A stretch of 49,221 nucleotides of DNA, taken from assembly GCA_037481835.1 (NCBI GenBank), contig JBBFKW010000018.1, positions 1 to 49,221 on the forward strand, read 5' to 3'. Both the position numbers and the translations under genes were made by a program. Below are positions 22,554-33,147 of the stretch, in pieces (position 1 is the first letter of the stretch; the number at the start of each line of letters is the position of its first letter). Under the pieces are notes generated by a model. That model made no database searches and was not told the origin of the DNA. It saw only the letters and a program-made list of their open reading frames with translations. The DNA is from Desulfosoma sp. (GTDB lineage Bacteria; Desulfobacterota; Syntrophobacteria; Syntrophobacterales; DSM-9756).

Positions 22554-22827
22554 GCCCCGAAAACCCCTAATTATCTCTTATTCCAAACGGAATCGTTCAT
22601 AACACAATCCCGGACCCGTTGCAAACGCCTCGGCTGCGCCCCGGACCGCCTGCAGGCACGAATGGGCCGGGATCAGCCGACGGCCCAGGGACAGGGCCAG
22701 CCGGACGCGGGGCCGCACAAAAGAGGCCGGGGCCGAATCATGGCGTTCCTTTTTATCCAGAAGCCGGGGGAAGGAGGGCTTCTTCACGCCTTTATCCATG
22801 CGGGGCTGCGGGAACTGTCACGATCCT

Positions 22828-24258
22828 TCAGGAATTTTCCCCTTGGAGCATGGGGAGTTTGAGCTGGCGGCGGTCGTCGTTGGCCAGGTAAATCGTCCGG
22901 GAAGGGAAGGCGAAGTCGATGCCCTCCTCGTTGAAGGCCTTCAGGATCGCCAGGCACGTCTTCTGGAGCCAGGCCTGGTAGGCCCAGTACTCGGGAGGAT
23001 GGTACCAGGCGATGACCATGATGTTGAGGCTCCAGTCGTTGAATCCGTTGAAGACGACCCGGGGCGGAAAATCCGGGTGCATGCCCTCGTGGTTTTCCAG
23101 GATTTCCTGAAGGATCTCCACGGCCCGTTCCACCTTCTCAGGCGGCGTGTCGTAGGTGAGGGTGATGTTGGTGAGCCAGCGGATGTGGGGTCGTCTCGTC
23201 ACGTTTTCCACGGGGGAGTTGACCACCTTTTCGTTGGGCAGGGTCACCAGGTGCCCAGTCAGGGTCCGAAGGCGGATGCTTCGAAACCCCACGGATTCCA
23301 CCACCCCGTCCAGGCCGTCCACCAGAATGCGGTCGCCCACCTGGAAGGGCTTGTCGAAAAGGATGGTCAGGGTGCCGAAGAAGTTGGCCACCGACTCCTT
23401 GGCCGCCAAGGCCAGGGCCAGGCCGCCGATGCCCAGGGAGGCGATGAGAGGGCCGACGTCGATCCCGGTCAGAGTCCGGAGAACCATGATGCCCCCCACG
23501 GTCGCCACAAAGATTCGCAGGGTCTTTCCCACCAAGGGGGCCAGCATGTCGTCGATGGTGCTTTCCGTGGTGGCGGCCCACCGCTTCATGCGCACGTCCA
23601 CCACGGTCGCAAGCCGATAGATGACCCAGATGAGGACGATGGTGCCGCCCACGTCTGCGGCCCGGCTGGCCACCGTATGGACCAGGTTGGTGCCGTCGGG
23701 GGATTGGAAATGACCGAAGAGCGGAGACAGGGCCGCATAGACGCCGTAGACCCAGATGAAGAGGGTGAGCGGCTTGTGGAGGGTTTCCAGGGTGAGGGAG
23801 AGCCAGCCCTCCTTTTCGCCGGCATCGGCCAGGCGATGCAGCCGACGCCGCAGAAAGGCGCGCACGAGCCGTTCGAAGACCACCACGACGAAGAGAAGCC
23901 CGGCGCAGACCATGAGCTTGAGCCAGCTGATGCCGTAGAGGACCTTGGCGTCCACCCATTTGCCCAGGCGCCGGGACGCCTTTTGGCTCATCTGGTCGAT
24001 GTTGGCCCCGATCTTTTGGGCCGCCTGGTCGATCTTTTCCGTCTGAACGGGGGTCACCTTTTCCGTGGGCAGGGGAATCAGGGGGGCTTTGGGGCCTTCT
24101 TCCGCCTATCCATTGTCCGGAGCGCTCTGCTGAGCCGATGAAGAAGGGGCCGGTGTCTGCCCCCAGGCGGAACCCGCCGGACCGGCCAGCACCAGCGAGG
24201 CGAAGACAACGATCAGAAGGGTTTGAAAGGGCGTCCGTATCCACGAAACCAAACCCAC
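22828..24258 (-). CDS. MscS-family mechanosensitive channel with in-frame TAG at codon 51 (24106-24108)
   Basis: SD AGGAGG plus GTG 24258 gives a signal peptide in frame with the MscS body (LGIGGLALALAAKESVANFF, KPFQVGD, GVVESVGFRS, GIDFAFP). May be a pseudogene or may restart at GTG 24057. Confidence 0.8.
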
Positions 24259-24372
24259 CTTGCACCTCCTTCTTTCGGCGTGGCCGCTCACAGGGCGATG
24301 AAACGAAACAACACGTTCTGTTTTCAATGCACGCGGGACGTGAGGCCGAATCACCGTTCGCCCCTACATTGG

Positions 24373-24600
24373 TCATATTCCAACGGCCATCAACAACTTT
24401 TTGGTTTCGTCCGAAAGGTTCACAGGAAGAAACATGGATGCTGGATAAAGGTATCCATCCGGTTCGGATAGATCTTCATCCAGTATGCGGAGCATATGAT
24501 GCGCTTCCGCTTCGGGATCCGGCAGCTTGCGATAGATTTTACCCACGATCAAGCTTGCCGGGTTGTCCTTATTGTTGATGCAGACCACGTATTCAATCAT
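24373..24600 (-). CDS. Small hypothetical protein (75 aa), downstream gene of a two-gene module
   Basis: YVVCINN...ASL..GKIY..LPD...LRILDE...YLYP. ATGA-coupled to the upstream gene. Confidence 0.75.
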   Translation of the reverse strand: MIEYVVCINNKDNPASLIVGKIYRKLPDPEAEAHHMLRILDEDLSEPDGYLYPASMFLPVNLSDETKKLLMAVGI

Positions 24601-24839
24601 CGGATCAACCTCTTGATCTTAAAATCCCTGCGACCAATTCCATGGGCTTCGTACCAGTAAATTTCGGCCTCGCAAGTGGTTCCGTCCCCAAGTTGCACGA
24701 CGGCGATACCCTTCATCTTCCGCCAACGTTCCGGACCGTAGTGGCGCTCCAGATATCGCCCAATGTGCACGCCTCGGCCTGAGGCAATGACCTCGATATC
24801 CTTGATCTCACTGAGGATCCATAACCCCTGAACATTCAT
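24597..24839 (-). CDS. Small basic hypothetical protein (80 aa), upstream gene of a two-gene module
   Basis: IEVIASG...YG..RWRKMKG...EIYWYEAHGIGRRDFKIKR. Start ATG 24839. Confidence 0.72.
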   Translation of the reverse strand: MNVQGLWILSEIKDIEVIASGRGVHIGRYLERHYGPERWRKMKGIAVVQLGDGTTCEAEIYWYEAHGIGRRDFKIKRLIR

Positions 24840-25018
24840 CGGGCCACACGCGGATTGGCGATCGTAGGTATCTTCACCGTCCAAATATACCCCATCTTCC
24901 CCGGTCCAACAACGCCCGGCCCTGCAAAGCCGCCGAACGTCGCGGGCAGGGGCGGAGTTCATCGCCGCCCGTGAAGCGTGCGGTGATGGATGGACTCGAT
25001 GAGGGCCATCTCGGCGGT

Positions 25019-25247
25019 TCAGGGTCCCGATGCCCTGCGCCCCTTGAGGTTGAGAAGCTCCACGAAGAGCGAAAAGCCCATGGCGAAGTCGATGGAGCCC
25101 CTTTCGATGTGCCTTCCGAAGCCCTCGGCCACCGGCAGGATGCCGATGAGCGGGAGAAAGCGGAGGGCCGGCATCTTCACGTGGGGTGCCGGTCAAGGTC
25201 ACCAGGGCCGCCGCATTTTCCAGGGTCCACAAATTCTCGAACAGCAT
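25019..25247 (-). pseudogene. TerC-family membrane protein remnant (internal deletion plus frameshift)
   Basis: The N-terminus (ENAAALVTLT) is joined directly to a TerC-like C-terminus in shifted frames (HPT/VKMPALRFLPLIGILPVAEGFGRHIERGSIDFAMGFSLFVELLNLK). Confidence 0.75.
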
Positions 25248-25250
25248 GTT

Positions 25251-26519
25251 CTAAGGAGTCTCCTCTTCCAGGATGTTTTCCGTTTCCCCGTTTCGCACCA
25301 GAAGGACCGACCCCAGGGGTAGGATCGTCCGGTCGATCTCTTCCGCGTAACCGAGGGCTTCCCCGGGCTCGGGCGCCCGCATGCCCAGGAGGGTCAGGTC
25401 CGTCTGCCCGCTCTGCTGCCTCAACACGGACGTGAACGGCTGCCGCGGATCCGCCTTGGTGAAGACCACCAGCTCCGCGTCCATGCGAACCTGGTAGAGC
25501 ATCTTCTGGAGGTGGTTCCGGAGCCCCTCCACGGCTTCTTCCCTGTCTACCACCTGCAAGAGGCGTGTTCGGGCGTCCTGCCACGGCTCGCTCTGCCGGA
25601 GAATGTGGGCGATGAGCAGCATGAGTTCCGCGTTTCGGTCCCGCCCTCTCCACCACACGTCGATGAGGCCGCAGGTGCCGAAGCCCCTTTCTTCATGGGC
25701 CCGGAGAAAGAGCACGGACTTTTTCAGGGAGATGAGCTTGCGCATGAGAAGGAGTTGTTCCGCCTGGGCGGAGCGGCGGCCGGCCCATCCCATGGCGACC
25801 ATGTTGGGCTCCAGACCGGCCAGGCCGTGGGCCTGCAGCAGCGTGACGGCCCCGCGGTAGAGGTCCTCCACGATGCTCGATTCGGTGAAGGCCAGGATCC
25901 CCTTTTCCGTCAGATACTCCTGCATGTAACGTCTGGAGGTCTCCCGGTAGCCTTTTCCGGCCAGGGCCTCCACATCGCCTTCGATGACGTAGTAGAAGGT
26001 GACGAAGCCTCTCCCCTTCGCCATCCATGTGCCCAAGGTGAGCAGATGTTCCTGTTTTTGAGGGGATCGCAGAAAGACCACCAGATTGGGCCGCCAGTTC
26101 TTGATGTGCCAGGGAACGGTCTCCAGGCCCATCAGGCTCAAACGGGCCAAGCTCAGCCAGATGCCGCTGCGGATGTCGCCCCAGTCGTGGCGCAGCGAAC
26201 GCCGCTTCAACAGGAAATAGACTCCGTAGCTGAGGATGATCGCCGCGCCGGTGGCCAGCGGATTGATGAGAAACATGGCCGTATAGCACCCCATGGCGCC
26301 CAGGAAGGAGAGGATCCAGGGAACATTGAAGTGGGGGCGGAAAGACGGGTTTCCCAGGAGCCGTTCCAGTCCTGCAGCCAGGTTGATCATCCCGTAGGTG
26401 TTCAGGAAAAACATGGTGATGATGGAAGCCACGAAGTCCAGGTTGCCCATCCAGATGACGGCCAGGGCGATCAGAATGGTGAGGAGGACCGCCATCCTGG
26501 GTTCGGTGGCGCTGCCCAT
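25251..26519 (-). pseudogene. 5'-truncated cation-chloride cotransporter-like amino acid permease
   Basis: EPR.A, ITMFFL.TYG..N, NPSFRP, KNWRPN and IDVWW motifs. The N-terminal TM helices of the family are missing. Confidence 0.75.
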
Positions 26520-26747: not shown

Positions 26748-26808
26748 CAAAGGTCTTGCTCAGCCTGTCCTATCATTCGCGCCGGGTGGAGCGGGTCGTC
26801 GTGATCCC

Positions 26809-27837
26809 TCATGAGGTTTCCCCTTGGAGCATGCGGAGTTTGAGCTGGCGGCGGTCGTCGTTGGCCAGGTAAATCGTCCGGGAAGGGAAGGCGAAGTCGA
26901 TGCCCTCCTCGTTGAAGGCCTTCAGGATCGCCAGGCACGTCTTCTGGAGCCAGGCCTGGTAGGCCCAGTACTCGGGAGGATGGTACCAGGCGATGACCAT
27001 GATGTTGAGGCTCCAGTCGTTGAATCCGTTGAAGACGACCCGGGGCGGAAAATCGGGATGCATGCCCTCGTGGTTTTCCAGGATTTCCTGAAGGATCTCC
27101 ACGGCCAGTTCCACCTTTTCAGGCGGCGTGTCGTAGGTGCTTTCCGTGGTGGCGGCCCACCGTTTCGTGCGCACGTCCACCACGGTCGCAAGCCGATAGA
27201 TGACCCAGATGAGGACGATGGTGCCGCCCACGTCTGCGGCCCGGCTGGCCACCGTATGGACCAGGTTGGTGCCGTCGGGGGATTGGAAATGGCCGAAGAG
27301 CGGAGACAGGGCCGCATAGACGCCGTAGACCCAGATGAGGAGGGTGAGCGGCTTGTGGAGGGTTTCCAGGGTGAGGGAGAGCCAGCCGTCCTTTTCCCCA
27401 GCCGCTTCCAGCCTCTGGAGCCTTCGGCGCAGCAGCGCACGCACCAGCCGCTCGAAGACCACCACCCCAAAGAGAAGCCCGGCGCAGATCATGAGCTTGA
27501 GCCAGCTGATGCCGTAGAGGACGTTGGCGTCCACCCATTTGCCCAGGCGCCGGGACGCCTTTTGGCTCATCTGGTCGATGTTGGCCCCGATCTTTTGGGC
27601 CGCCTGGTCGATCTTTTCCGTCTGAACGGGGGTCACCTTTTCCGTGGGCAGGGGAATCAGGGGGGCTTTGGGGCCTTCTTCCGCCTATCCATTGTCCGGA
27701 GCGCTCTGCTGAGCCGATGAAGAAGGGGCCGGTGTCTGCCCCCAGGCGGAACCCGCCGGACCGGCCAGCACCAGCGAGGCGAAGACAACGATCAGAAGGG
27801 TTTGAAAGGGCGTCCGTATCCACGAAACCAAACCCAC
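26809..27837 (-). pseudogene. mscS copy with the same TAG (27685-27687) and a 402-bp in-frame deletion
   Basis: Reads WAATTEST|YDTPPEK. Lacks 134 aa, including the pore helices and the beta domain. Confidence 0.88.
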
Positions 27838-27938
27838 CTTGCACCTCCTTCTTTCGGCGTGGCCGCTCACAGGGCGATGAAACGAAACAACACGTTCTGT
27901 TTTCAATGCGCGCGAGAGTCCATAACCTACTGAAAATT

Positions 27939-27966
27939 CTGGATCCCAGCTTCCCCGGGGATGACG
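27939..27966 (-). repeat. CGTC-type REP-like hairpin
   Basis: CGTCATCCCCGGGGAAGCTGGGATCCAG on the minus strand. Single copy. Confidence 0.4.
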
Positions 27967-27998
27967 AATGGGCGTTGAAGGGCTCAAACTAGCCGTTG

Positions 27999-28307
27999 TC
28001 AGACAGGCTCCCAGCGTTCCACAAGCTTCTCTCTTATCCAGCTTGGGTTTCTTCGACAATCGAGTACGGCGATAACCACGACTTCTTTTTCCAGAACTTT
28101 GTAATACACTGCGAAGGGAAATCTCTTGGAAAGAAGCCGGTGGTGTCCATGGACCACGCGATGAATCCCGGCGAAAAATGCGAGCGAATCGATATCGGAA
28201 TAGAGAGAATCCAAAAAATACGAGCCAAGACCCGGAGACAGACTTTCGTAAAAATGATAGCCCTCTTCCAGATCTCTTTCAGCGCTATCAAGGATCTTCA
28301 CCTTCAC
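27999..28307 (-). CDS. RelE/ParE family type II toxin
   Basis: ILDSAERDLEEGYHFYE...GLG..F...KRFPFAVYY...VIAVLDCRRNP. GTGA overlap with the antitoxin gene. Confidence 0.88.
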   Translation of the reverse strand: MKVKILDSAERDLEEGYHFYESLSPGLGSYFLDSLYSDIDSLAFFAGIHRVVHGHHRLLSKRFPFAVYYKVLEKEVVVIAVLDCRRNPSWIREKLVERWEPV

Positions 28308-28525
28308 AGCACGTTCCTCTTGATTCTCTCCTTGGCCTCCTCCCAGTCAGATATGGTTGCTTTTCCAGTTGCCAACGCTTGTTCCCGATCTTTGAGGACT
28401 TCTTCATGCCAATGAGGGGAATCGAACGCAAGATCCTGTCTGGATAAATCGTCCCAAATAGCCTCCATCAGTTGGAGCTTCTCAGCTACGGTCAGCTTTG
28501 AGAGAGGAAAATTGATTTTTTCCAT
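28304..28525 (-). CDS. Addiction-module antitoxin (TIGR02574-like)
   Basis: LTVAEKLQLMEAIWDDL...SP.WH..VL..R...DWEEAKERI. SD AAGGAG upstream. Confidence 0.87.
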   Translation of the reverse strand: MEKINFPLSKLTVAEKLQLMEAIWDDLSRQDLAFDSPHWHEEVLKDREQALATGKATISDWEEAKERIKRNVL

Positions 28526-28725
28526 GCCTTCTCCTTTCTCGGGACGGGCACACGGATACTTGCCCGAGATGCCTATTGACTGTCTCTTCCACAATACCCC
28601 ATCTTCCCCGCTCCAACAACGCCCTGCCCTGCAAAGCCGCCGAACGTCGCGGGCAGGGGCGGAGTTCATCCCCGCCCGTGAAGCGTGCGGTGATGGATGG
28701 ACTCGATGAGGGCCATCTCGGCGGT

Positions 28726-28954
28726 TCAGGGTCCCGATGCCCTGCGCCCCTTGAGGTTGAGAAGCTCCACGAAGAGCGAAAAGCCCATGGCGAAGTCGAT
28801 GGAGCCCCTTTCGATGTGCCTTCCGAAGCCCTCGGCCACCGGCAGGATGCCGATGAGCGGGAGAAAGCGGAGGGCCGGCATCTTCACGTGGGGTGCCGGT
28901 CAAGGTCACCAGGGCCGCCGCATTTTCCAGGGTCCACAAATTCTCGAACAGCAT
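28726..28954 (-). pseudogene. TerC remnant, copy B
   Basis: Same lesion as 25019-25247. Confidence 0.75.
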
Positions 28955-28957
28955 GTT

Positions 28958-29338
28958 CTAAGGAGTCTCCTCTTCCAGGATGTTTTCCGTTTCCCCGTTT
29001 CGCACCAGAAGGACCGACCCCAGGGGTAGGATCGTCCGGTCGATCTCTTCCGCGTAACCGAGGGCTTCCCCGGGTTCGGGCACCCGCAGGCCCAGGAGGG
29101 TCAGGTCCGTCTGCCCGCTTTGCTGCCTCAGAACGGACGTGAACGGCTGCCACGGATCCGCCTTGGTGAGGACTACCAGCTCCGCGTCCATGCGAACCTT
29201 GTAGAGCATGTTCTGGAGGTGGTTCCGGAGCCCCTCCACGGCTTCTTCCCTGTCCACCACCTGCAGGAGGCGTATTCAGGCGTTCTGCCACGGCTCGCTC
29301 TGCCGGAGAATGTGGGCGATGAGCAGCATGAGTTCCGC
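28958..29338 (-). pseudogene. Permease C-terminal fragment, copy B
   Basis: Homologous to 25251-25631 and cut at 29338. Confidence 0.8.
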
Positions 29339-29341
29339 TGC

Positions 29342-29670
29342 CAATAACCCCCATCACGGGCAGCCCCGTGACAAAGAAAAGTGAAAGTCTAGTGGTTACT
29401 GTATGTTACCAAAACTTTCATATAAGGTTCTCGCACAAGCTCCCGGGGGCTCGACTTTCATCCTTGGTTGTGACACCGCGACATGCGACCGTATCCCCGA
29501 TTTTTGTTGGGGTTCGCTTCGCTCACCCCAACCTACATTCGCCGGCCAGCATTCTTAAATAAACTCGTATGTTGGGGTGAGCGAAGCGAATCCCAACGCA
29601 GATCTGGATCCGGCGAGACAACGAACCAAGAAAGTCCTGCCTTCCCAGATTCCGACCGCGACTTTCATAT
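29342..29670 (+). repeat. Composite REP-doublet element, copy 2
   Basis: REPs at 29506-29536(-) and 29567-29597(+, degenerate), with TGAAAGT/ACTTTCA inverted motifs. Colinear with 32821-33147. Confidence 0.85.
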
Positions 29671-32820: not shown

Positions 32821-33147
32821 CATTGACCCCCATGGCGGGCCGCCTGTGACAACGAAGAATGAAAGTCCGTAGTTACGGTATGTTACAGAGACTTTCATGT
32901 AAAGGATTCTCGGACAAGCTCCAGGGGTTCGAGTTTCATCCTTCGTTGTGAGACCGAGACGTGCGAGCGTATGCCCGGTTTTTGTTGGGGTTCGCTGCGC
33001 TCACCCCAACCTACAGTCGGCGGCCCAAAATGTTCAATAAACTCGTAGGTTGGGGTGAGCGGAGCGAACCCCAACCCAGATCAATATCCGGCAAGACAAC
33101 GAACCATGAAAGTCCTGCCCTGCCGGATTCCAACTGCGACTTTCACA
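32821..33147 (+). repeat. Composite REP-doublet element, copy 3
   Basis: REPs at 32984-33014(-) and 33045-33075(+). Confidence 0.85.

Follow-up and report, generated by a model that had tools for sequence, protein, structure and literature searches.

A 49,221-nucleotide stretch of a Desulfosoma sp. genome (the window; positions 1 to 49,221 of contig JBBFKW010000018.1, GenBank assembly GCA_037481835.1) contains a tandem duplication, one copy of which holds two small genes, here termed A and B, in a slot between mscS and a remnant of terC (Table 1). An earlier note, made from the sequence alone, had described two ATGA-coupled genes, one for a basic protein of 80 amino acids (aa) with a WYEAHGIG motif and one for a protein of 75 aa, had recognised no named domain in either, and had proposed that they form an uncharacterised toxin–antitoxin (TA) or defence module, possibly toxin-first. 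The two genes and their overlap were confirmed (coordinates and isoelectric points, pI, in Table 1), and we describe below the family to which they belong, how it appears to move and how its function might be read.

A widespread gene pair outside described families

The start of B overlaps the stop of A by four bases (ATGA, 24597–24600), with a Shine–Dalgarno motif, AAGAGG, 9 nt upstream of the B start; a scan of 24200–25300 for sigma-70 promoters and terminators found no sites. Protein A carries the signature G21, G35-x-G37-x-W39-R40-K41-x-K43-G44, E59-x-H61-W62-x-E64-A65-H66-G67-x-G69, K74 and K76 (as a consensus, GRWRKxKG...E.HWYEAHGIG), and at least 95% conservation across 144 A–B pairs was seen at A19, G21, L30, G35, G37, W39, R40, K41, K43, G44, E59, H61, W62, E64, A65, H66, G67, G69, K74 and K76. 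Median pI was 10.1 for A (n = 30) and 4.5 for B (n = 30). Among 90% clusters, homologues at E ≤ 1 × 10−3 numbered 390 for A and 457 for B, and a profile of A matched 1,974 representatives of 50% clusters at the same threshold, 678 of them at E ≤ 1 × 10−10. Relatives of A are encoded by 403 of the 185,579 species genomes and in at least 586 metagenome stretches, the carriers being, by record, Chloroflexota, Planctomycetota, Acidobacteriota, Armatimonadota, Desulfobacterota, Nitrospirota, Nitrospinota, Bipolaricaulota, Omnitrophota, Proteobacteria and one DPANN archaeal bin.

As the earlier note had surmised from the letters alone, neither protein has a named domain: A, B, their divergent relatives and their fused forms had no match in Pfam, NCBIfam, PADLOC or PHROGs (among PADLOC-DB 2.0 component models, 0 families; in PHROGs, nothing below E = 0.02, whether single proteins or all 30 A members were the query). 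Searches of PDB sequences with an A or a B profile returned nothing below E = 0.2, and the ESM Atlas held only unnamed clusters for A and B; this comparison of family status covered these six resources and did not include TADB, TASmania or NetFlax. A full-text literature search with three motif strings found no paper, and a word-based search, with supplements outside it, returned context papers, none describing an A–B family.

The two genes are inherited together. Pairing was assessed in 80 loci from species genomes and in a second, more divergent set of 80 metagenome loci. A homologue of B begins 0–25 nt downstream of A in 79 of the 80 species-genome loci, the sole miss being a contig that ends 179 nt past A (L068), and B lies directly after A in 76 of the 80 metagenome loci, two of the four misses being contigs that end 77 nt past A; the pairing of homologues in one order, which had been proposed as a check on the module, was found in both sets. 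Pairwise distances among A and among B proteins correlate across the 144 pairs (Mantel r = 0.87, reached by 0 of 500 label permutations), which is what co-inheritance looks like at the sequence level; a Mantel correlation alone does not show co-evolution. Single-chain fusions also occur, with A followed by B (P0398, of 166 aa and present on 24 contigs, P0408 and P0411). At one locus (L063, 1642–2087), a B-like gene of 76 aa is ATGA-coupled to an unrelated upstream open reading frame (ORF) of 72 aa without a family match, which may represent partner swapping or an orphan antitoxin.

Mobility as an integron gene cassette

The neighbours of A–B are unrelated from locus to locus (150 flanking ORFs, Pfam scan). 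Flanking ORFs with a Pfam match are mostly housekeeping genes, alongside seven in ParE, CopG, HEPN, HicB, DUF4160, DUF2442 and DUF433 (which we take to be TA-linked families), two restriction–modification genes and one Cas3-like gene. Groups of loci from different phyla nonetheless have common non-coding DNA on either side of the pair, and the element downstream has the cores of an integron attC site, GCCTAAC ... GTTAGGC, on either side of an imperfect hairpin; when 13 such sites were aligned, 11 of the 19 predicted pairs had compensatory change on both sides. A covariance model built from these 13 aligned sites gave 43 matches (E ≤ 0.1) in the window and the 80 genome loci, 38 of them on the gene strand, and four of the five minus-strand matches were weaker hits to plus-strand sites read in reverse. 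At E ≤ 1 × 10−3, 17 of the 80 genome loci had matches, and 12 of these 17 had supplied training sites; new sites appeared in L004, L009, L016, L025 and L041, and several training loci gained further sites. Applied to the independent metagenome set, the model gave 25 matches from 12 of the 81 sources, every one of them on the gene strand. Sites on both sides of A–B, in L130, L133, L141, L151 and L167, delimit cassettes of ~0.6 kb. Judged from these same-strand attC arrays, the A–B pair moves as an attC-flanked integron gene cassette in related loci.

The window's own locus lacks such an array, and no attC match was found in the window with default filters. With filters off, a possible decayed remnant was found that is weak and not significant alone (Table 1). 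The leader of A starts with an attC R′-like core (GTTCGGC, 24932–24938) and aligns to cassette leaders of other phyla, and for these reasons the window's chromosomal A–B pair probably descends from a cassette.

In the wider family, the leader between the upstream attC and the A start (~100 nt) comes in two conserved variants that are shared across phyla, one in L003, L005–L007, L010, L011, L013 and L062 and the other in L004, L008, L016, L025, L027, L041, L049 and L050, both ending ...GTGAG(T/C)(A/G)(T/G)GATGGATG; this conserved leader could be a promoter/operator or a structured 5′ untranslated region. One carrier of the first variant, a 4-kb contig binned as Candidatus Iainarchaeum (DPANN; L013), has same-strand attC sites at 1400–1529, 2257–2391 and 2923–2998 together with ParE and A–B, and would represent an archaeal integron array unless the contig is bacterial and was mis-binned.

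One A–B pair was found on an IMG/VR viral contig; a second viral-contig match (L185) proved spurious on inspection. The only plasmid carrier is a 485-kb megaplasmid, in which RefSeq annotates both genes as 'hypothetical protein'.

Asymmetric selection on A and B

We compared selection among the window and its two closest relatives, Desulfacinum infernum (L001) and a Desulfacinum bin (L002), using 78 other sequences as the conservation reference. Among the three, dN/dS was 0.57–2.4 for A, a range that rests on 4–8 non-synonymous and 1–3 synonymous changes, versus 0.05–0.13 for B. Each A protein has radical changes of its own at positions conserved in at least 95% of the 78 others (in the window R27G, G37E and H61Y; in L001 W39R; in L002 K41N), and G37, W39, K41 and H61 are also conserved to at least 95% across the 144 pairs; the three B proteins have three shared conservative changes only. 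This pattern would be expected if A were harmful and had been blunted independently while B was still needed. Because R27G, G37E and H61Y fall at conserved sites, the window's A may itself be weak, attenuated or inactive.

Predicted structures and fused forms

Predicted models of A and B both reached a mean confidence (pLDDT) of 86.6. B is modelled as an SH3-like barrel with a C-terminal helix, with Foldseek matches to many SH3 domains at a probability of ~1.0 (E ~0.02), and had no helix–turn–helix, ribbon–helix–helix, AbrB or Phd match in Pfam or NCBIfam. For A, with the predicted element order β-β-α-β-β-β, Foldseek found no convincing solved relative; the best PDB match, Rad52 (E = 0.07, TM score 0.34), was rejected as its fold. 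The fold search that the earlier note had proposed characterised B as SH3-like and gave no convincing assignment for A.

Against predicted viral structures, A matched three gut-phage proteins at 27–28% identity, two with TM scores of 0.73 and 0.72 (E = 6 × 10−4 and 8 × 10−4, root-mean-square deviation 2.4–2.5) and a third, of 99 aa, with a TM score of 0.63 (E = 7 × 10−3). One of the matched proteins, of 451 aa, is labelled 'minor capsid protein', a name that the reference list of PMC5576092 gives for gp7 of phage SPP1, considered there to be a MuF protein; among MuF proteins are polymorphic toxins whose toxin domain lies at the C terminus (PMC5576092). In such a pair, the MuF (PF04233) protein that bears the toxin domain is followed by an immunity gene. 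The likeness of A to these toxins, an A-like domain within larger predicted phage proteins, is a structure-based lead. An A domain is also the C-terminal half of three clusters of fusions of ~185 aa (P0428, P0431 and P0432), behind an N-terminal HNH domain (PF01844) that is weakly similar to the HNH of IscB and Cas9d (NCBIfam); in these fusions GRWRK reads GSWLK, and their closest free-standing relative found is L090, which is followed by a B-like remnant only. Of the ten longer A-domain proteins that were read, five had unrelated-looking N-terminal extensions and are probably over-extended ORFs or read-through; the Pfam domains of the others were scattered single cases. The recurrent architectures are the three HNH fusions and the A–B fusions. 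Apparent HNH matches in L092 and L128 turned out, on inspection, to be free-standing A genes.

The duplicated locus and its history

The two copies of the tandem duplication are 96–97% identical (BLASTN, region halves), in blocks of 97.3% (22822–23158 and 26803–27139), 95.9% (23551–24335 and 27130–27914) and 97.2% (24880–25631 and 28588–29338). By BLASTN they differ at two stretches only, namely 23159–23550, which is absent from copy B as a 392-bp internal deletion within mscS, and the slot itself (24336–24879 versus 27915–28587). Junction alignments placed the break points of slot A at ~24339 and ~24886, reproducing those reported earlier along with the duplication. The flanks were likewise as described: MscS at 22828–24057 matched PF00924, PF21082 and PF21088, and the 53-aa TerC remnant, with no Pfam match of its own, aligned to the intact TerC of L001 (PF03741, E = 1.9 × 10−48). 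On the remnant's side lies the C-terminal fragment of an SLC12/AA_permease transporter (25251–26519). Slot B holds the RelE/ParE-type toxin and antitoxin pair that had been recognised there, although the TIGR02574 match of the antitoxin fell just under its cut-off (Table 1).

Table 1. Features of the duplicated locus, in coordinates of the window
Feature	Position	Strand	Description
Gene A	24597..24839	-	80 aa, basic, pI 9.5; putative toxin; contains WYEAHGIG
Gene B	24373..24600	-	75 aa, acidic, pI 4.7; putative antitoxin; SH3-like barrel plus C-terminal helix (predicted)
Leader of A	24840..24938	-	~100 nt; homologous to leaders of attC-flanked A–B cassettes in other phyla
Possible decayed attC remnant	24929..24987	-	8.6 bits, E = 0.07 over 1 kb, filters off; weak, not significant alone
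Slot A	24339..24886	none	copy-A stretch without copy-B counterpart, beside the mscS deletion of copy B
Duplication copy A	22822..25631	none	intact MscS, A–B pair, TerC remnant, part of transporter fragment
Duplication copy B	26803..29338	none	mscS with 392-bp internal deletion, ParE/antitoxin pair, TerC remnant, shorter transporter fragment
ParE-family toxin, slot B	27999..28307	-	ParE_toxin PF05016, E = 2.6 × 10−5, 25.2 bits against a cut-off of 23
Antitoxin, slot B	28304..28540	-	Unstab_antitox PF09720, E = 1.2 × 10−16; TIGR02574 below cut-off (28 against 31.9 bits)
MITE-like repeat fragment, slot B left end	27912..28014	none	fragment of a repeat of ~150 nt

Copy B retains the first ~50 nt of the A–B leader (24887–24938 matches 28594–28645), and the left end of its insert is a truncated repeat resembling a miniature inverted-repeat transposable element (MITE), which encodes the last codons and the stop of ParE. 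From the retained leader start and the MITE-like end, we infer that A–B occupied the slot before the ParE pair, which displaced it from one copy once the duplication had arisen, by a route other than integrase exchange. The swap with a ParE pair described in the earlier note is therefore not a clean cassette-for-cassette exchange. The full MITE-like repeat (~150 nt; L176–L183), of which the window has a fragment at 27912–28014, has inverted ends CTGGGAGGCTGTCCGA ... TCGGACAGGCTCCTAG, with 24–25 matches in each of two related genomes (G005 and G008, the two other-genus carriers of the locus described below) and short partial matches only in the window's genome; folding of the slot-B junction gave no structure beyond that of shuffled sequences (z = +1.0). 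Outside the duplication, an 80-nt direct repeat of 86% identity lies at 29443–29522 and 32921–33000.

The arrangement TerC – A–B – MscS occurs at 90–98% nucleotide identity in L001 and L002. In whole-genome searches, the locus was present in two of the 20 other relatives, both from a different genus within the family, and none of the three genomes from the window's own genus yielded it; the window's genome has one A gene only. The identity to the other-genus locus extends over ~3.7 kb (22783–26518: MscS, A–B, the TerC remnant and the transporter fragment), and this segment looks like a transferred piece that later underwent tandem duplication. L001 has intact TerC and transporter genes, both of which are truncated in the window, and a separate TerC-like stretch, of 78% identity, lies on another contig of the window's genome.

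Interpretation

We lean, if not strongly, towards reading A–B as a new toxin-first type II TA (or toxin–immunity) family, in which a putative nucleic-acid toxin, A, and an SH3-type antitoxin, B, form a selfish, cassette-borne module. As in type II systems, these are adjacent, co-oriented, small, overlapping genes kept as a pair, with a patchy and horizontally mobile distribution. The toxin gene comes first in HigBA, MqsRA, HicAB and BrnTA, and the antitoxin gene comes first in vapXD. Like those four toxin-first systems, A–B consists of two short genes that overlap and run in the same direction, the first encoding a basic product and the second an acidic one, and the toxin-first assignment fits this order of charges; like toxin-first type II pairs generally, A–B is mobile and patchy, and it occupies the same slot as a ParDE-type pair. 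For B, the closest likeness would be to VapX and VapY, which PMC11980593 describes as SH3-fold antitoxins acting with the VapD nuclease: at the level of the predicted fold, B resembles these small SH3-like β-barrel antitoxins that lack a classical DNA-binding domain. The resemblance does not extend to the toxin, since A has no VapD/Cas2 model match (no Pfam match at E ≤ 1) and a β-β-α-β-β-β element order, so that a putative SH3-fold antitoxin is present and a Cas2-like VapD toxin is not. By the tests run here, A–B appears to fall outside RelE/ParE, HicAB, BrnTA, VapXD and the PADLOC systems.

TA cassettes in Vibrio carry their own promoter. TA genes are reported to be abundant among integron cassettes (PMC10661359), and the ~0.6-kb A–B cassette in same-strand attC arrays resembles the TA cassettes of chromosomal integrons (PMC13108822 and PMC10661359). 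A–B differs from those cassettes in having no family name, in a divergent subfamily almost without promoter room, and in that the window's copy lies outside an integron, where the leader with its R′-like core and the weak attC remnant remain.

In the mechanism that we propose, the basic loop of A (G-x-G-R-W-R-K-x-K-G), together with the strand bearing E59, H61 and E64, would bind and possibly cut nucleic acid, and the acidic, SH3-like B would bind A one-to-one, covering its basic surface. The ATGA overlap and the AAGAGG site would couple the translation of B to that of A. The module would spread largely as an integron gene cassette and, after fixation in a chromosome, as in the window's lineage, A would gather attenuating mutations while B is kept.

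Several observations weigh against a toxin-first TA family. Most type II antitoxins have a DNA-binding domain, and none is recognisable in B; across phyla, A and B each keep 60–80% identity, unusually high conservation for a TA pair. Pairing is not without exception: L090 has room for B and only a B-like remnant in another frame, and in an integron array (L161, 58–861) an intact A is followed by a B cut after ~25 codons by the next attC. (By eye, the sequence of the next ORF there, at 592–861, is BrnT-like.) In the divergent subfamily, the A start lies just 33–42 nt from the upstream attC, which leaves scant space for a promoter. Plasmids almost never carry the pair (one of the 72,556 records), two A queries gave no credible tblastn match in cultured-phage records (INPHARED), and a look-up of sequencing runs returned no RNA run. 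The asymmetric selection is also open to chance, given the few changes behind the dN/dS of A and the placing of five of the nine lineage-specific changes on the 24 conserved positions of 80, for which a binomial estimate puts the neutral chance at ~1 in 10. The suggestion of an uncharacterised TA pair, possibly toxin-first, is therefore upheld by the pairing, the charges and the absence of a described family, with further support from the natural fusions, the cassette mobility, the ParE pair in the equivalent slot, the SH3-like fold of B, the A domains in HNH and predicted phage proteins and the radical changes at invariant A positions beside a conserved B, and is weakened by a B without a recognisable DNA-binding domain and a window A that may be attenuated.

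An overlapping account, in which the selected function differs, is that A–B is a two-gene abortive-infection cassette against phages, with A as an effector that B restrains and infection releases. Integron cassettes hold many small phage-defence systems, most of them unpredicted by current tools, according to two reports (bioRxiv 10.64898/2026.03.17.712381; PMC12614218), some neighbours of A–B are restriction–modification, Cas3 or TA genes, and there is the pair on an IMG/VR viral contig; yet no PADLOC model was matched by A, B, their divergent relatives or the fusions, and the Pfam-matched neighbours are mostly housekeeping genes and not defence islands, which leaves this account unlikely, if deserving of serious weight. 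Should A and B instead form a nucleic-acid-binding heterodimer without toxicity (such as a small regulator, or an accessory protein for single-strand binding, plus its partner subunit) carried as passive integron cargo, the weak fold matches of A to Rad52, PC4 and YdbC-type single-strand binders, the very high conservation, as with a fixed cellular partner, the A-only cassette of L161 and the lack in B of the usual antitoxin DNA-binding domain would all find a place. We regard this as improbable: the distribution is patchy (403 of the 185,579 species, two of the 20 other relatives and none of the three same-genus genomes), the genomic contexts are unrelated, the sister-copy slot holds ParDE, and A evolves in a relaxed or radical manner against a constrained B, and because of these four features a selfish module fits better than a housekeeping factor.

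Polarity could also be reversed, with B the toxin and A a basic, DNA-binding antitoxin or autoregulator. Classical type II operons are antitoxin-first, antitoxins bind DNA, A is basic, and an SH3-like barrel also underlies the toxins MazF and CcdB. This arrangement is nevertheless very improbable, since B has 75 aa only and is acidic, the hits at invariant residues fall in A and not in B (an antitoxin has to remain intact for as long as its toxin acts), a B-like gene stands without A beside the unrelated 72-aa ORF of L063, and it is A that occurs as a domain in HNH nuclease fusions and within larger predicted phage proteins. That A and B are chance ORFs or annotation artefacts is scarcely credible, even though the window is GC-rich and has many long spurious antisense ORFs: hundreds of homologues, purifying selection on B, confident folds for both proteins and the conserved pairing establish A and B as real genes.

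Building on the toxin-first TA reading, a bolder proposal can be made, possible but in our view doubtful. In it, A would be the founding member of a nucleic-acid-targeting toxin fold used in three ways (free, with an SH3 antitoxin, on cassettes; as the C-terminal module of HNH fusions; and in phage 'minor capsid'/MuF polymorphic toxins), B would found a new family of SH3-type, nucleic-acid-mimic antitoxin or immunity proteins, and the pair would, outside Proteobacteria, be one of the integron cassettes shared most widely.

Should A prove toxic and B neutralise it, the pair would add a TA family both of whose partners lie outside described families, and one of considerable size (403 species and some 1,970 clusters at the 50% identity level). 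It would also represent a widely shared integron cassette from environmental phyla such as Chloroflexota, Planctomycetota, Acidobacteriota, Armatimonadota and Desulfobacterota, in which hardly any cassette has an assigned function. The GRWRKxKG / E-x-H-W-Y-E signature provides a set of residues for mutation, and G37E, W39R, K41N and H61Y are natural candidates for attenuated alleles. The links to HNH proteins and phage structural proteins, if true, would join TA, polymorphic-toxin and integron biology via one small domain.

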